A stretch of DNA of 64,000 bases. Origin: a virus. Lineage: Duplodnaviria > Caudoviricetes. The translations under genes were made by a program, and so were the position numbers. Under the pieces are notes generated by a model. The model worked only from the letters and a program-made list of their open reading frames with translations, was not told where the DNA came from and searched no databases. Of this stretch, positions 15,423-64,000 are shown in pieces. Numbering within the stretch: the first letter of the stretch is position 1; each line of letters starts with the position of its first letter. The stretch covers positions 3,273 to 67,272 of the IMG/VR virus record IMGVR_UViG_3300021387_000301; one strand, 5' to 3'.

Positions 15423-16082
15423 TTATATCCAGTCTAAGATGGTAGGACCTTTATACCCTTTCCTCCAGACCCACCAGGCGTAGGCCACGGCGCTGCCGCC
15501 GTGTGCGCGCATATAGCCGAAATCCGCGTTCTTGGCGCACAGCACGCGCTCCACGCATTGCAGGACAAATTGGGGGGGGGGGGGGATAATTTTGAATATC
15601 TCGTTGTAGCGCGCCTTGCCCTCGGCGAAGGTGGTCTTAAGGAACATACATACGTAGCCGCCTTCGGGTACGAGGTCCAAAGCGTGCAGCACGAACGCCT
15701 TGGCATATTTGTACGGAGGGTTCGTGACGATGGAGAAAGCACCCTCGAAAGGCGGCTCGGTCATATCGAAGAAATTGCACCTCTCGCCGTAGCCCCGGTC
15801 GATGAGGTCGTAACTCTTGACATCGTAGCCGCGCTCCGTAAGGCGCTCAGAGAGACACCCCGTGCCGCAGGCAGGCTCCAAGACCTGCTTGTTGATGCTG
15901 ATTTTCTTAAGGAGCAGGTCGATGGCGGCGGGGTCGGTGGCGTAGAAATCATTTTTCTCGCGCTCTTTGTCGGTGTGGTTGCTCGCACCCATAATCTTGA
16001 AGATGCTGTGGAACGAGCCAGTCCAGTCTTTGTCGGTCATAGTGGTTTTGGGATAGAATGACGGCGGCAGCGTATAGGCCAC
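15423..16082 (-). CDS. N6-adenine (amino) DNA methyltransferase
   Basis: SAM-binding LEPACGTG and catalytic NPPY; start may be MTDKDW at 16040. Confidence 0.85.
   Translation of the reverse strand: MAYTLPPSFYPKTTMTDKDWTGSFHSIFKIMGASNHTDKEREKNDFYATDPAAIDLLLKKISINKQVLEPACGTGCLSERLTERGYDVKSYDLIDRGYGERCNFFDMTEPPFEGAFSIVTNPPYKYAKAFVLHALDLVPEGGYVCMFLKTTFAEGKARYNEIFKIIPPPPQFVLQCVERVLCAKNADFGYMRAHGGSAVAYAWWVWRKGYKGPTILDWI
15572..15585 (-). repeat. C14 homopolymer within the MTase coding sequence
   Basis: ATC CCC CCC CCC CCC CAA encodes IPPPPQ; currently in frame. Confidence 0.9.
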
Positions 16083-51210: not shown

Positions 51211-52479
51211 TTAGTTTTGGGAATCCGTGGTCTGCGAAGATCGCGGATTTTCTTTGTACCTACCCTCAAACTTGTTAAGGAACTCCACTACCCTATAGAT
51301 GGCGGCATCTATCTTCCGTTGGTCGTGCGAGATATAGCGCGACGTTACCTGCTTGCCTGATGCCCAAGCGTGGCCGAGGCATTTTCCTATCGTGCTTTCC
51401 GATATATCGAGGTCATTGGCCGCTACGCTTGCAAAGGTATATCTCGCGCTGTAGGAGGTTATACAGGGGAAAATAGGGCTTCTCTCTATCTTGCGCAGCT
51501 TGCCCAGCTTGTCGGGAACCAAGCGTGACGGCCCTATCTTCTTCAAGGCCGCGTTCCAATGCTGCATAAAAGTGTGATAGTCCTTCATATTATCCATAAT
51601 ATTCAGCAGATAATTCTCGCCCTTGTACTTGTTGATGATAGCCATAGCCTCCGGGCAGACTGGCAGGCTAATCTTGCGTGATTTCGTGGAGTTCGCCTTG
51701 TCCGTTTTCCTGCGCACGAACACGAAACGCCCTTTCTCCAGACCCTTGCACAGCAGCATATCACCTACATTGACGCCTGCGAGGTATGTGGAAAGGCAGA
51801 ACATATCTATGTATATCTGCTGCCACGGCTCGCAGGGATAGTCGCGCAGATCAGCGAACTCCTGCGCCGAGAGAGCGTTGGGTATCGTTTCTTCCTCATG
51901 AATCTTGTACCCGTCACGCCCCCGGAAAGGATAGTTGTCCGTCAAACCCTGCTCCCTGCACCAGTTGAAAACGGTGCGGATGCAGCGCATTTTCTGCGCG
52001 ATTCCGTTCACTGAAAGACCCCGTTTTTCCCTAAGCCAAACTTCTAATTTACTCAGCCAAGGCTCGCGGGTTGAATCAAGGCACGCTGTCGGGTCGAACT
52101 CGCGCACGCGGTCGCTGGTGTTCCTATATAGAACAGCCGTGCTTTTCTTCAATCCTTCGGCGTATTTCGCGCAGTAGTAAGCAAGAGTGTCGGTCTCGCA
52201 GACGTCGCGCTCCACGCCGTCTATATCTGCTTTTATACTATCTTTCAACTCGTTAAGGGTCACATTGGGTTTTCTGCAACATATACGATCCAGCCTGTCA
52301 ACTATCCATGCGAGCTGCTTTGTTTTGAGCATCTGCTGCTGGCTGACAATGCTGCTTTCTGATGTAAAACCAGTGGCGATTAACATTTTTTTACCGCCAT
52401 TGAGAAGGCGTATCTTTATAGGGTATGAACCGTCCGCCAGAGGGCGTCTTGTATCTATAAAAAGGTCGTATTTTGTCAT
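51211..52479 (-). CDS. int: tyrosine integrase (Bacteroidota type)
   Basis: Arm-binding N-terminus DGSYPIKIR; RKT, YSAR, LGH and catalytic Y in VTSRY. Confidence 0.9.
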   Translation of the reverse strand: MTKYDLFIDTRRPLADGSYPIKIRLLNGGKKMLIATGFTSESSIVSQQQMLKTKQLAWIVDRLDRICCRKPNVTLNELKDSIKADIDGVERDVCETDTLAYYCAKYAEGLKKSTAVLYRNTSDRVREFDPTACLDSTREPWLSKLEVWLREKRGLSVNGIAQKMRCIRTVFNWCREQGLTDNYPFRGRDGYKIHEEETIPNALSAQEFADLRDYPCEPWQQIYIDMFCLSTYLAGVNVGDMLLCKGLEKGRFVFVRRKTDKANSTKSRKISLPVCPEAMAIINKYKGENYLLNIMDNMKDYHTFMQHWNAALKKIGPSRLVPDKLGKLRKIERSPIFPCITSYSARYTFASVAANDLDISESTIGKCLGHAWASGKQVTSRYISHDQRKIDAAIYRVVEFLNKFEGRYKENPRSSQTTDSQN

Positions 52480-56178: not shown

Positions 56179-56868
56179 ATGGCAAAAACAACAAACAATC
56201 AGCCACAGGGCGACAACCTGCGGTACTACGAGAAATTGCGCGATGTGCCTGCAAACGCTATCAAGCAAATCGGCGCAGGCCGACTGAAAGGTATGTCGGA
56301 CATCAACCCCGTCTGGCGCATTAAGGTTATGACCGAAACTTTCGGCCCCTGCGGCATCGGATGGAAATACGAAATCACCAAGCAGTGGCAGGAAATATTC
56401 GGTCAGGAAGTCAAGGCTTTCACCAATATCAACCTCTACATCAAGGTAGACGGCGAATGGAGCGACCCTATTCCGGGCACTGGCGGCGCAACCATTGTGG
56501 AGATCAACTCCAAGGGCTACGCCTATGTCAACGATGAAGGTTACAAGATGTCCTTGACCGATGCTCTCAGCGTGGCAATGAAATCCCTTGGTGTTGCTGC
56601 CGACATCTATTACAGCAAGGACAAAGGGCAGTTCGACACCAAGTATGAGCAGCAAGCCTATGTGGCACAGCAGCCTGCATCGGCCCCCGCAGCACAGCCA
56701 CAAGCACAAGCCAGCGCGGAGCAGGTCATTGCAGAAATCAATGCTGCGACAACGCTGGAAACTCTCACGGCTATCTATCGCAAGTACCCACAATGGCAGC
56801 GTGACGCCAACTTCACGGGCGCGCTGACTGCGAGGAAAGACCAAATCAAGAACAACGGAAAATCGTAG
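56179..56868 (+). CDS. Rad52/Sak-like single-strand annealing protein
   Basis: SDINPVWRIKVMTETFGPCGIGW and KMSLTDAL. Confidence 0.75.
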   Translation: MAKTTNNQPQGDNLRYYEKLRDVPANAIKQIGAGRLKGMSDINPVWRIKVMTETFGPCGIGWKYEITKQWQEIFGQEVKAFTNINLYIKVDGEWSDPIPGTGGATIVEINSKGYAYVNDEGYKMSLTDALSVAMKSLGVAADIYYSKDKGQFDTKYEQQAYVAQQPASAPAAQPQAQASAEQVIAEINAATTLETLTAIYRKYPQWQRDANFTGALTARKDQIKNNGKS

Positions 56869-56871
56869 GCT

Positions 56872-57792
56872 ATGAAGATACCGACATTGAAACAATCGCC
56901 AGTGACCTTCCGCAGCGAAGACCATACCTACTGGCTCGGCACCAAACAACTGCAAGGTGTGACCTCAACCCTTGTGCGCAGGGCATATCCCAACACCTAC
57001 TCCAAACCCGACGGTTACACCGATGAGGAATGGCAGCAAGTTTTGGCCAATGCAGCCGCTAAGGGCAGCAATATGCACGAAACGATTGAGTTGCACGATG
57101 AACTCGGTATTGAGAGCGACCTGCCCGAACTGCAAAGCTATATCCGCATCAAGAAAGAGCATCAGCTTCAAGTGGTCGCCACTGAATATGTGGTGTCCGA
57201 TGAGCAGCACTATGCCACCGCTGTTGACAAGGTAATGATGAAACCCGATGGTGGCATCATCCTCGTTGATTTCAAGCGAACGTTCAAACTGCATATCGAG
57301 GATGTCACCGTCCAGCAGAGTATCTGCAAGCGTTTCTTTGAAATGCAGAACCCAGGCTTGAAAGTCGATAGCATCTATGTTATGTGGCTGCGCGATGATA
57401 AGAGCAGGTTCGAGGAACTTACACCCTGGGCCGAAGAGGCTCTGGACGCCCTCATATCAGCCGACCTCCATAACGAAACTTTCGACATCACTACAACATA
57501 CGGCGATTTGCCCTCAAAATTTGCCGAGGTTGAGTCGGAAGTCGCTCGCTTGGAGATAGAACTCAAAGTGGCGCAAGAACGCCAGAAAGAGCTTAAAAAG
57601 GGCTTATATGACCTTATGGAGCATAACAGCATAAAGTCTTGGACTGGCAGTAAGATAAAACTGACGAGAGTGTTGCCCACAAAAAAAAGCACATTTGACA
57701 GCAAGACTTTTGAAAAAGAGCATCCCGACCTTTACAAGAAATATTTGAAAGAGAGCACGTCGGCAGGCAGTCTGCGAATAACAATAATATGA
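56872..57792 (+). CDS. PD-(D/E)XK exonuclease
   Basis: GVTS, KGSNMHE, VD...LVDFK; partner of the annealing protein. Confidence 0.75.
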   Translation: MKIPTLKQSPVTFRSEDHTYWLGTKQLQGVTSTLVRRAYPNTYSKPDGYTDEEWQQVLANAAAKGSNMHETIELHDELGIESDLPELQSYIRIKKEHQLQVVATEYVVSDEQHYATAVDKVMMKPDGGIILVDFKRTFKLHIEDVTVQQSICKRFFEMQNPGLKVDSIYVMWLRDDKSRFEELTPWAEEALDALISADLHNETFDITTTYGDLPSKFAEVESEVARLEIELKVAQERQKELKKGLYDLMEHNSIKSWTGSKIKLTRVLPTKKSTFDSKTFEKEHPDLYKKYLKESTSAGSLRITII

Positions 57793-60490: not shown

Positions 60491-62575
60491 ATGAACACTG
60501 ACGAAATACGCAAATGGCACCACGTATTCAAGCGCCCCGGAGAACTCTTTGAGATACGCCTGCTGGGCGATAGGACGTGGAGCGGATATTTCTACGATGT
60601 CGAGGATGCCATCGAGCAGTTGCAGCCTTATGACAACCTCAACATCTACTTCACGGTCAACGAGGTCAAGAGCGCCTGCGACAGCCGTTCTCAGTTCGAC
60701 TGCTTCCGACAAGTCAAAGGCACGGCGACGAGCAAGCAGGACATCGAGCATCGTTGGTGGTTGCCTATAGATGTCGATTGTGAGCGGCCGAGCGGCGTCA
60801 GCTCTACCGATGCCGAGAAACAACTGGCGCACGCCAAGGCTGGCGATGTCTTCCGTTTCCTTAAAGCGAACAATTTTCCTGAGCCTGTCGTCTGCGACTC
60901 ATCGAGCGGCTATCACATCTACCTCCCAATAGACATCGGTAACACCCCGGAGGCTGAGGCGGCGGTAAAGCTGTTCCTTGAAACCCTTGGCAACATCTTC
61001 ACCGATGAACACGTCAAGATAGACAACGTGCTCTTCGATGCCAACCGCATCATACGCCTGCCTGGTACTTACGGCAGGAAAGGCAGGAGCACCGAGGACC
61101 GCCCGCACCGTTTGGCCAAGATACTCTCGGTGCCTACTGAGATAGTTAGGGCAGACCTTGCCGCCCTCGATGCTTTCAACAGCCGCTACAAAATCACGGC
61201 AGAGCCAGTCAAGCACCAAAGCTACGGCGGCGGTACTTTCGACATAAGGACTTTCATCCGCGACCACGGCATAGGTGTTGACAAGGAAATTCCTCTTGTA
61301 GGAGGCGGCACCAAGTTCATACTCTCCGAGTGCATCTTCGACTCCGGGCATAAGGCTCCCGATGCTGCCATCTTCGAAATGCCGAACGGCGCGATAGCAT
61401 ACAAATGCTTTCATCAGTCTTGCTCTTCGTATAGCTGGCAGGATGTGCGCAGAAGATTTGAGCCAGACGCCTATAATCGGGAATATCGTGAAATTAGGCC
61501 GAGAAACCCTCTCTCACAGCCTTTCTCCCCTCAGCCTAAGCAACCCACCGCTCCACCTGTAATCGAAGCTGAGAGCGAAGAAAAAGGGCCGATATGGCTT
61601 TCGATGTCCGACATCCAAAAAGTAGACATCGAATCCATGGAGCACGTCAAGACTGGCTATACGGAGTTGGATGAGAAAATCAAAGGACTGTTCATGGGCG
61701 AGGTCACGCTCATATCGGGAAATAACTCATCGGGTAAGTCCACGTTTCTGAATAACCTCATCCTGAACATCATCGATCAAGGTTGGAAGGTGGCCCTTTG
61801 GTCGGGCGAGCTTCTCGACATCAAGCTGAAACGCTGGCTGACGATGCTGGCGGCAGGCAGGAAACACACGTTCACCTCCCCGAAAGGCTACAACTATGTT
61901 CCCGATGATCTTGCAAAGGTAATCGACGAATGGCTGAATGGAAAACTCTTCATCTACAACAACAAGTACGGCAATAGATGGGAGCAAGTCCTGACACAAC
62001 TTAACAAGCTGGTCGAGCAGGGCGTGCGGATATTCTTCCTCGACAACCTTATGGCGATGAACATAAACATCTTCGAGGGAGACAAGAACGAGCGCCAAAA
62101 GCTGTTTGTAAGCCAGCTGACCGATTTTGCCAAGGACAACAATGCTTCCATCGGCCTCGTTGCTCATCCGAGAAAAGCCTCGACGCTCATACGCAAGGTA
62201 GACATCAGCGGCACCTCCGATATTACGAACCTCATCGACAATCTCTTCCTCATCCATCGCAACAACGAGGATTTCAAGAGAGAGGGCAAGGAATATTTCG
62301 GTGCTCCGCTGATGGGTTACATAGCCTCCAAGAACTACGGCAATATTTTGGAGGTGGCCAAAAACCGCTTGGAGGGTGTTCAAGACCTGCTGGTAGGTAT
62401 GTACTACGAGCCAGTCAGCCACCGTATGATGAACGCCCCCGATGAGGAAAAGGAATACGGATGTTTCCGCACCGGGGAGCAGACCTCGATGTTCACTGAG
62501 ACCGCCGAGCAGCAACCTCCCCAGGTGTTCGACCCATTCAGCGCCCCACAGTCCACTGAGGACTGCCCTTTCTGA
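60491..62575 (+). CDS. AEP primase fused to SF4 (DnaB/Twinkle-like) helicase
   Basis: IDVDC and SGYHIY primase motifs; SGNNSSGKST, LDNL, VAHPRK, DISGTSD. Confidence 0.85.
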   Translation: MNTDEIRKWHHVFKRPGELFEIRLLGDRTWSGYFYDVEDAIEQLQPYDNLNIYFTVNEVKSACDSRSQFDCFRQVKGTATSKQDIEHRWWLPIDVDCERPSGVSSTDAEKQLAHAKAGDVFRFLKANNFPEPVVCDSSSGYHIYLPIDIGNTPEAEAAVKLFLETLGNIFTDEHVKIDNVLFDANRIIRLPGTYGRKGRSTEDRPHRLAKILSVPTEIVRADLAALDAFNSRYKITAEPVKHQSYGGGTFDIRTFIRDHGIGVDKEIPLVGGGTKFILSECIFDSGHKAPDAAIFEMPNGAIAYKCFHQSCSSYSWQDVRRRFEPDAYNREYREIRPRNPLSQPFSPQPKQPTAPPVIEAESEEKGPIWLSMSDIQKVDIESMEHVKTGYTELDEKIKGLFMGEVTLISGNNSSGKSTFLNNLILNIIDQGWKVALWSGELLDIKLKRWLTMLAAGRKHTFTSPKGYNYVPDDLAKVIDEWLNGKLFIYNNKYGNRWEQVLTQLNKLVEQGVRIFFLDNLMAMNINIFEGDKNERQKLFVSQLTDFAKDNNASIGLVAHPRKASTLIRKVDISGTSDITNLIDNLFLIHRNNEDFKREGKEYFGAPLMGYIASKNYGNILEVAKNRLEGVQDLLVGMYYEPVSHRMMNAPDEEKEYGCFRTGEQTSMFTETAEQQPPQVFDPFSAPQSTEDCPF

Positions 62576-62601
62576 TAACTTAAAAACAACAATTTGATAT
62601 A

Positions 62602-62836
62602 TTATTCTTGTAATGTCGCCGTAGTTCTTATCCTTAACATCGGGGAATAAAGCATTATGTGCAATGACGGCAGGTTGCTTATCCAACGGGGTCTCGGGCG
62701 TTTCGGGATCGTACTCTGCCCACCCTACAAGTTCAAAGTCAAAAGAGGGGTTTAATGCTTTCAACCTGCGCATCGCCAACCCCTGCGACTCATAGCCGCT
62801 GCATAGCGTTGCAAGTCTTATCTTATTGTTTTCCAT
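62602..62836 (-). CDS. dcm: 5' part of C5 cytosine MTase (motifs I-III), in inverted orientation
   Basis: MENNKIRLATLCSGYESQ...WAEYD...NYGDITRI. Confidence 0.85.
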
Positions 62837-62878
62837 AAGTTTTCAACCATTTATTTAGAGGTTCCATTACAAGAATAA
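62602..62878. mobile_element. invertible segment bounded by 14-bp inverted repeats
   Basis: TTATTCTTGTAATG (62602-62615) and CATTACAAGAATAA (62865-62878). Confidence 0.8.
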
Positions 62879-63438
62879 ACTGGCCTGACTTCCCCGATTG
62901 TGACCTGCTTTTTTACTCGACCCCTTGTCAGAGTGTGTCCCAAGCTGGCCTTCAACACGGCTTTGCAGAGGGCAGCGGAACGCGGTCGAGCATCATTTGG
63001 AACGTCCGCGATGCGGTCATTGCCAAGCGACCCAAGTTCCTATGCCTGGAGAATGTCCGTGCTATGGTTTCGGCCAAGTTCGTCGGTATGTTCAACCTTT
63101 GGCAGCGGGAGTTGGAACGGCTCGGCTATACCAACTACGCTGAAATCCTTAACGCCAAGGATTTCGGTGTTCCGCAAAACCGAGAACGCATCTTCCTTGT
63201 CAGTGTTCGCAACGATGTGGGGCTGAGATACCATTTCCCTAAGCCGTTCAAGCTGACCAAATGCCTTGCCGACATCTTGGAAGAGAATGTCGATGAGAAG
63301 TTCTTCCTGCGCGATGAAATGCTTGCGAGGTTCTGCGAGAAAAGCCTCGAAGAAGAAATCGTTCCGGGAATAGATATAGGAGTCCTTGAAAACGAACGCG
63401 AGGATGGTGATGAATCATTCTTTGGAAACGCCTACTGA
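62865..63438 (+). CDS. dcm: 3' part of C5 cytosine MTase (motifs IV-VIII)
   Basis: ITRINWPDFPDCDLLFYSTPCQ, ENV, QNRERIF; no start codon before the catalytic PC in the current orientation. Confidence 0.85.
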
Positions 63439-63691
63439 GGTTATCATCCTTGGCAGACTTAGCACCTCTCAGGATGCTATAGTCGTCGGAGGGGGGGGGT
63501 ATCGCCATGCCACACCGCAGGACACGGAAATACGCCCAAGGTGGCCGTTATCACGGATTAAGCCGCATAACGTGTGCTATGGCTGTGTTGCCTGCACCTT
63601 GAACACCCGCTACGAGGATGCTGCCATCAAGGACTATATCACGCTAAGGCACTACCCGAAGACAGTCGTAATGGCCATCTATGAAACATAG
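63404..63691 (+). CDS. MTase-associated variable module(s) with G9 tract
   Basis: VVGGGG at G9 (63491-63499); the alternative frame reads VSPCHTAGHGNTPKV. Confidence 0.55.
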   Translation: MVMNHSLETPTEVIILGRLSTSQDAIVVGGGGYRHATPQDTEIRPRWPLSRIKPHNVCYGCVACTLNTRYEDAAIKDYITLRHYPKTVVMAIYET

Positions 63692-63884
63692 TAACGTCAC
63701 ACTAAACATACCGCAGGCTACGGCATTGGGGTACATCCCCTGCCCCGTATGGGGCTGTTTCGATTGGAATTACCCCTCTTCCAAGCTGCGGCGCGGCCGC
63801 GTACAGGGGGGGGGTAAAATTACTCCTGCCCTGACTGGCAACGCCACCACTATCATTGCAATAACAGCCGATGAGACCGATTAA
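63681..63884 (+). CDS. MTase-associated variable module with G9 tract
   Basis: QATALGY...YPSSKLRRGRVQGGGKITPALT, a module seen in phage C5 MTases. Confidence 0.65.
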   Translation: MKHSNVTLNIPQATALGYIPCPVWGCFDWNYPSSKLRRGRVQGGGKITPALTGNATTIIAITADETD

Positions 63885-64000
63885 GGACAAGTCAAGCATC
63901 ATAGGGTTCTATATCAAGCCCAATAGGGCGCATCCGAACAAAGGTGTAGTCTATGATGAGAGATATATCTCCCCCTGTATGACCGCAGGAATGGGGGGGG
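63871..64000 (+). CDS. MTase-associated module, truncated by the window end
   Basis: MRPIKD...ISPCMTAGMGG ending in a run of at least 8 G. Confidence 0.55.
   Translation, partial: MRPIKDKSSIIGFYIKPNRAHPNKGVVYDERYISPCMTAGMGG

Follow-up and report, generated by a model that had tools for sequence, protein, structure and literature searches.

A probable invertible on/off switch in the cytosine methylase gene of a bacteriophage

Short inverted repeats that reverse the DNA between them, and so change what a gene can encode, have been described in bacteria as the partial intergenic and intragenic invertons of gut bacteria (Chanin et al., 10.1101/2023.03.11.532203) and as gene-altering programmed inversions (Milman et al., PMC9881135). 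The locus described here, from a gut or rumen phage, shares with these a short inverted-repeat pair with one arm inside a coding sequence, a flip that alters coding capacity, both orientations in natural populations, and a gut or rumen Bacteroidota setting. It differs in lying on a phage genome, in removing the start codon and motif I of its gene instead of swapping alternative gene ends as a shufflon does, in acting on an orphan split C5 methylase, and in having no identified invertase. No such case was found in the text of either paper.

DNA inversion also changes the methylation capacity of bacterial populations, through the Type I hsdS 'epigenetic invertons' (Huang et al., PMC7672463) and inverton-like epigenetic phase variation in gut bacteria (PMC11741434). 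Those switches mostly exchange the specificity halves of hsdS, or parts of restriction-modification genes, usually next to a recombinase gene; here the catalytic subunit would be turned on or off in a phage, and specificity appears to be handled separately by mini-genes with poly-G tracts. Among phages, the G segment of Mu (Gin) and the C segment of P1 (Cin) produce two kinds of progeny as a bet-hedging strategy, but are several kilobases long, switch tail-fibre genes, and have an adjacent serine invertase with an enhancer, whereas the present segment is 249 nt long, its target is a methylase, and no serine recombinase was found on the contig. The E. coli fimS switch, a segment of about 300 bp between very short inverted repeats giving on/off phase variation, carries a promoter and has its tyrosine recombinase genes (fimB, fimE) adjacent; the present segment carries coding sequence and no promoter box, with no recombinase gene adjacent.

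The naturally split C5 methylases M.AquI and M.EcoHK31I and the multispecific methylases of Bacillus phages SPR, phi3T and rho11s provide the nearest enzymological parallels. As in M.AquI, motifs I-VIII and IX-X lie on separate polypeptides, and, as in the SPR type, several target-recognition domains (TRDs) serve one catalytic core. However, the TRDs here are free-standing mini-ORFs of 50-70 aa, several with poly-G tracts, which are not part of either subunit and not in tandem in one chain. A literature search for phage methylase invertons found no paper describing an invertible methylase gene in a phage, and a 2026 review of prokaryotic methylases lists none.

Anatomy of the invertible segment

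The window, that is, the whole stretch of DNA analysed, comprises the last 64,000 nt of a 67,272-nt IMG/VR phage contig (74% complete by CheckV) and ends at the contig end. Its relevant features are as follows.

51211..52479, minus strand: diverged tyrosine recombinase (integrase) of 422 aa next to a cI-like repressor gene, 10.1 kb from the switch.
60491..62575, plus strand: upstream DnaB-like helicase gene (694 aa; PF03796 and PF13481).
62602..62615: left inverted repeat, TTATTCTTGTAATG, non-coding, 26 nt after the stop of the helicase gene and, in the ON state, 28 nt before the ATG.
62616..62864, minus strand: invertible segment, here in the OFF orientation, with the 5' leader, the start codon (62834-62836) and codons 1-73, including motif I (LCSGYESQ).
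62865..62878: right inverted repeat, CATTACAAGAATAA, inside the coding sequence at the codons for (D)ITRI(N).
62865..63438, plus strand: fixed part of the N-subunit gene, from codon 74 to the stop (63436-63438), with motifs IV (TPCQ), VI (ENV) and VIII (QNRER).
63386..64000, plus strand: start of an array of mini-genes, each apparently encoding one TRD, with G9 tracts at 63491-63499 and 63806-63814 and a third tract at 63993-64000, which is G12 in a longer contig; the array continues beyond the window.

The sequence-only reading had proposed that a cytosine methyltransferase gene is split by an invertible 5' segment, currently OFF, and the observation was confirmed. The two repeats are 100% complementary over 14 bp and bracket 249 nt. 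A search for the 14-mer with up to 2 mismatches recovered only these two copies in 64 kb, so that no second copy of the site, such as an attP core, was found elsewhere in the window; shuffled sequences gave a mean of 0.31 matches, and none of 100 shuffles gave two. The start codon and codons 1-73 lie on the minus strand at 62836-62616, and the plus strand from 62866 reads ITRINWPDF onward. Reverse-complementing 62616-62864 in silico joins the two parts in frame into one 264-aa ORF reading ...NYGDITRINWPDFPDCDLLFYSTPCQ..., the product that had been proposed. The plus-strand part matches Pfam PF00145 positions 51-219 at E 1.9e-37, the intact homologue in relative L002 matches PF00145 at 5e-44, and TIGR00675 is matched at 6.8e-42; the large-domain motifs I, IV, VI and VIII of a C5 methylase are all present in the flipped ORF.

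In the present orientation the frame of the fixed part is open only from 62839 and has no ATG, the first in-frame start being a GTG downstream of the catalytic Cys; the state here is therefore a true OFF. The flipped N-terminus runs instead into a 369-aa open frame antisense to the helicase gene (61727-62836, minus strand). We considered whether this encodes an alternative fusion protein, but in the two other OFF lineages (L083 and L085, below) the equivalent ORF stops after 17-29 codons, so this is probably chance. Otherwise unrelated contigs of 292 and 1,319 nt, from runs X1 and X3 described below and of unidentified origin, match 34 nt of the segment (62824-62857) with 2 mismatches; the stretch is AT-rich and the match may be chance.

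The claim that this is a coding inversion and not a promoter flip also holds. No TAnnTTTG (Bacteroidota -7) box lies inside the segment of this window on either strand, none lies on the sense strand in any of the 15 loci compared below, and only 5-29 nt separate the left repeat from the ATG. A conserved promoter just outside the left repeat was sought as well: a TTTG lies 13-17 nt upstream in most lineages, but it is absent in three and is partly the last codons of the upstream gene. The methylase is probably co-transcribed with the helicase gene; this is inferred, the same gene order being found in relatives L002 and L133.

Both orientations in near-identical and related phages

The sequence-only reading had named coexistence of the two orientations across the junctions as what would confirm switching, and both were recovered from public data with joints exactly at the 14-bp repeats. 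Logan contigs of four runs from one study (X1 to X4) were compared with 61500-64000. These contigs are built with k = 31, longer than the repeat, so that the assembler cannot flip the segment at it. Run X1, the probable source, has a 19-kb contig at depth 19.7 in the OFF orientation. Run X2, from another sample, has an 882-nt contig that runs from 61906 to 62601 and continues on the opposite strand from 62878 to 62693, which is the ON left junction (62601|62878) with no mismatch. Run X3 has the ON left junction in a 1,437-nt contig with 4 differences from the window, and also the ON right junction (62616|62865). Every joint has 14 letters that fit both sides. The evidence comes from contigs and not from raw reads of a clone, and X1 and X3, although filed under one sample, differ by a few SNPs, so they may be co-existing strains and not one clone flipping. 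Two ENA assemblies and the Logan contig reproduce the OFF form letter for letter, while a further, independent ENA scaffold (L129) has the ON left junction in a background 99.85% identical over 3.9 kb.

A comparison with related phages for conserved repeats, likewise proposed in advance, was also favourable. Protein-guided and pattern-guided scans gave 15 loci, making 12 distinct lineages, with the same repeats at the same place in the same gene. Nine lineages are ON and three are OFF, namely this window, L083 and L085; the last two are sisters at 84% nucleotide identity, so the tree needs as few as two inversion events. This window is only about 64% identical in DNA to the rest. All three OFF copies give intact full-length ORFs when flipped, with no stop or frameshift, and show no decay. 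Exact-protein look-ups for more ON/OFF pairs in the other clade returned only the known contig or nothing. Scans of metagenome and genome contigs with the repeat pattern, which would have revealed a general host inverton class with the same repeat, gave 22 non-methylase hits, none of them related. Most are long palindromic elements of about 350 bp with terminal inverted repeats of more than 90 bp, resembling MITEs and retrieved by chance because they share the AT-rich pattern (L095, L098, L100-L102, L104, L107, L108, L112, L113, L115, L116, L118, L119, L122); many copies come from one group of metagenomes, possibly termite gut to judge from the accessions, although this was not checked. The rest are AT-rich chance matches with non-complementary arms.

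The two arms are the most constrained part of the gene. Among the 11 lineages other than this window, with a mean pairwise difference of 0.21, they are the only 15-nt stretches with zero diversity, although the 60 nt of non-coding DNA before the left arm differ at 0.48. In that clade the right arm reads GAC ATT ACA AAG ATA and is frozen at its synonymous sites, whereas more distant relatives encode GD(M/I)TKI with other codons, lack the left arm, and are all ON. This window has TTCTTG where the others have TCTTTG, in both arms: AGA (Arg) replaces AAG (Lys) in the right arm, with the matching two changes in the non-coding left arm. Both arms are therefore under selection to stay complementary.

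A split enzyme with an array of TRD-like cassettes

One correction to the sequence-only reading is that the 264-aa product is not a complete methylase but only the catalytic N-terminal subunit of a split, multi-TRD enzyme, the N ORF stopping after motif VIII. In the whole family the N ORF covers PF00145 positions 2-211 and a separate ORF holds motifs IX-X at positions 271-311. Motifs IX and X are thus absent from the N-subunit polypeptide. The NCBIfam model for the N-terminal subunit of M.AquI-type enzymes (NF045953) matches only at E 0.041, 14.6 bits against a cut-off of 93; the enzyme works like a split methylase but is not a member of that subfamily. In more distant relatives (L008, L009, L014, L021, L025) the motif IX-X region lies upstream of motifs I-VIII, apparently fused to them, which suggests circularly permuted forms of the same methylase family.

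Longer contigs of this same phage (L125 and L126, identical to the window) show the full locus (L125:12896-15930). About 13 overlapping mini-ORFs of 40-85 aa follow the N ORF, each with its own ATG and stop, and are thus not tandem TRDs within one polypeptide as in the SPR/phi3T type. Most end in ...Y(E/D)T(D/E), and the DNA of that ending holds the ATG of the next mini-ORF. A 195-aa motif IX-X subunit comes after the array (L125:15343-15927), 1.8 kb beyond the window end. Six poly-G or poly-C tracts (G9, G9, G12, C8, G9, G9) lie in this 2-kb array, and cassettes 1, 9 and 11 are out of frame at their G9. Only one other G or C run of 7 or more occurs in the 64-kb window, a G14 tract at 15572-15585 that the sequence-only reading places inside an adenine methylase gene; poly-G tracts are confined to the array region in relatives L002-L009 as well. 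The IMG/VR contig stops inside the G12 tract, and several relatives' contigs (L003, L006, L009) also end within 1 kb after motif VIII, suggesting that population heterogeneity or homopolymers in the array break assemblies.

Tract length could not be read from the Logan runs, in which the contigs of X2 and X4 break at or near the tracts. Between 99.3%-identical copies of the cassette region, however, one tract is G7 in the ENA scaffold (L129:4180-4200) against G9 in the window's phage (L125:14958-14966), with a T>A change beside it; G8 would restore the frame of cassette 11, and the difference fits slipped-strand variation. The same scaffold (L129:3875-3965) joins codon 14 of the ON-oriented N-terminus directly to cassette 10 across a shared GCAGCGGCT, lacking 2.6 kb that comprise most of the N-subunit gene and cassettes 1-9, and is either a natural deletion variant or a chimera.

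One 51-aa cassette is kept as an intact ORF in six lineages, with its variation concentrated in one loop. A complex model, built with alignments of our own, places it between motif VIII of the N-subunit and the motif IX strand of the C-subunit, with a score of 0.87 against 0.00 for the best of 3 controls. That mark was reached by 58 of 80 solved complexes and by 2 of 110 mismatched pairs; the pass may nonetheless reflect likeness to solved single-chain C5 methylases. The three runs agree in at least 77% of contacts, and partner pLDDT is at least 78.

Mechanism and interpretation of the inversion

The sequence-only reading was right that no invertase gene is adjacent, and had offered the integrase, a host invertase in trans, or a Rad52/Sak annealing protein as candidates. 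Profile searches with PF00589 and PF00239 found nothing in the whole contig, and the diverged tyrosine recombinase at 51211-52479, with PF13102 at E 3.6e-10 and weak XerD/XerC similarity over residues 109-379, is the only recombinase candidate on it. No library search that we ran recognised a Rad52/Sak protein in the window, the candidate ORFs 56179-56868 and 56872-57792 giving no Pfam or NCBIfam hits. The repeat-bearing relatives have a syntenic integrase 10.5-12 kb upstream, but these share only 28-82% identity with each other and that of this window is not detectable by BLAST against them, which is too diverged to explain nearly invariant arms; moreover, tyrosine recombinases also occur in relatives without the repeats. 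Co-occurrence thus gives no support to the phage integrase either way, and no recombinase has been tied to the sites, a result that leaves the identity of the catalyst undecided. In the larger clade the left site reads ACATTA-TCTTTG-TAATGT, two inverted half-sites around an asymmetric 6-nt centre, which is the layout of a tyrosine-recombinase core, and the two-position covariation falls in that centre; such enzymes need identical central regions in the two partner sites. The half-site consensus of that clade (CACWTTA-N6-TAAWGTG) is, however, poorly kept in this window.

We consider it probable (roughly 0.8) that this is a genuine gene-altering inverton, 'partial intergenic' in the terms of Chanin et al., and the interpretation offered by the sequence-only reading is supported. 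In this view, recombination between one site in the leader and another inside the codons for D-I-T-R-I reverses the 249-nt segment holding the start codon and the SAM-binding motif I. In one orientation a 264-aa subunit with motifs I-VIII would be made; in the other, the state seen here, no start codon or motif I is joined to the catalytic half, and no active subunit could be made. As this subunit would have to combine with the motif IX-X subunit and with one of about 13 free-standing target-recognition mini-proteins, the inverton would act as a master switch for all the specificities of the system. The analysis itself demonstrates the anatomy of the switch, both orientations in near-identical natural phages, the recurrence of both states among related lineages, and strong purifying selection on both arms. 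We infer, without direct demonstration, that the flip is enzyme-catalysed, most likely by a tyrosine recombinase supplied in trans (the phage integrase or a host enzyme); that it is reversible within a lineage, which was not measured here and has only the indirect support of intact OFF copies and conserved arms, no reversal from OFF to ON having been observed; and that it lets the phage population hedge between methylated and unmethylated progeny, against hosts with methylation-sensitive or methylation-dependent restriction. The earlier claim that the phage toggles methylation of its progeny is likewise an inference, as neither methylation nor expression data were examined.

The strongest alternative, though an unlikely one, is that the inversions are recurrent but not programmed, short-homology recombination between the arms flipping the segment from time to time through the phage's own annealing/recombination module, host RecA, or template switching at the replication fork, while the repeat is kept for another reason, possibly as a long-range RNA stem closing the 5' end of the mRNA around the start codon. 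What is conserved between this window and the other clade is indeed the complementarity of the arms and not a strict recombinase half-site; the arms pair as the closing stem of the predicted mRNA fold, and two-sided covariation is also what an RNA helix would show. The relatives carry a RecT / PD-(D/E)XK-type / RusA module, this window has RusA, and no invertase is adjacent. We cannot exclude such homology-driven exchange, nor that the arms are also kept as an mRNA stem. Yet 14 bp is below the usual homology needed for efficient general recombination, while 3 of 12 lineages are OFF and the flip is seen between sequences 99.8-100% identical. If homology alone drove the flip, selection could easily lengthen the non-coding arm, but the repeat keeps sharp boundaries of 13-18 bp in every lineage, and an AU-rich 14-bp stem across 250 nt is a weak regulator.

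It is very unlikely that a single inactivating inversion has left the gene on its way to decay. The contig, its independent re-assemblies and the X1 contig show only OFF, three cassettes of the same phage are out of frame, and a possible 2.6-kb deletion variant of the locus exists; but the ON form occurs in a 100% identical background, the same inversion at the same sites is seen in two other lineages, no OFF copy is disabled, and both arms are under the strongest constraint in the gene. An assembly, scaffolding or amplification chimera is less likely still: although the feature lies 1.1 kb from a contig end that stops in a homopolymer and inverted chimeras occur in amplified viromes, the OFF form is reproduced by Logan and two ENA assemblies, the ON form by separate runs and a separate assembly, the repeat is shorter than the assembly k-mer, and the same two states occur in unrelated metagenomes for diverged relatives.

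A more far-reaching and tentative possibility is that the inverton is the top level of a two-level, combinatorial phase-variation system carried by a temperate phage, in which inversion sets the shared catalytic subunit on or off while slippage in the poly-G tracts does the same for individual TRD mini-proteins. One phage genotype would then release progeny with many different 5mC patterns, including none, the flip being catalysed in trans by a host or phage tyrosine recombinase acting on a minimal core site embedded in codons. This would be a phage-side counterpart of bacterial phasevarions, tuned to hosts that carry both methylation-sensitive and methylation-dependent restriction.

In practical terms, genome annotation pipelines will call such genes truncated or absent, host-range and methylome predictions from a single assembly can be wrong, and assemblies break in the cassette region that follows the switch. 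The system also gives a compact natural example of a three-part C5 methylase, whose specificity modules look exchangeable. Phage methylases are usually read as constitutive anti-restriction tools. A switch that is conserved and under selection, and that turns one off, implies that methylation has a cost for the phage, which could be methylation-dependent restriction or effects on a lysogen, and that phages hedge their epigenetic state much as bacteria phase-vary their restriction-modification systems.
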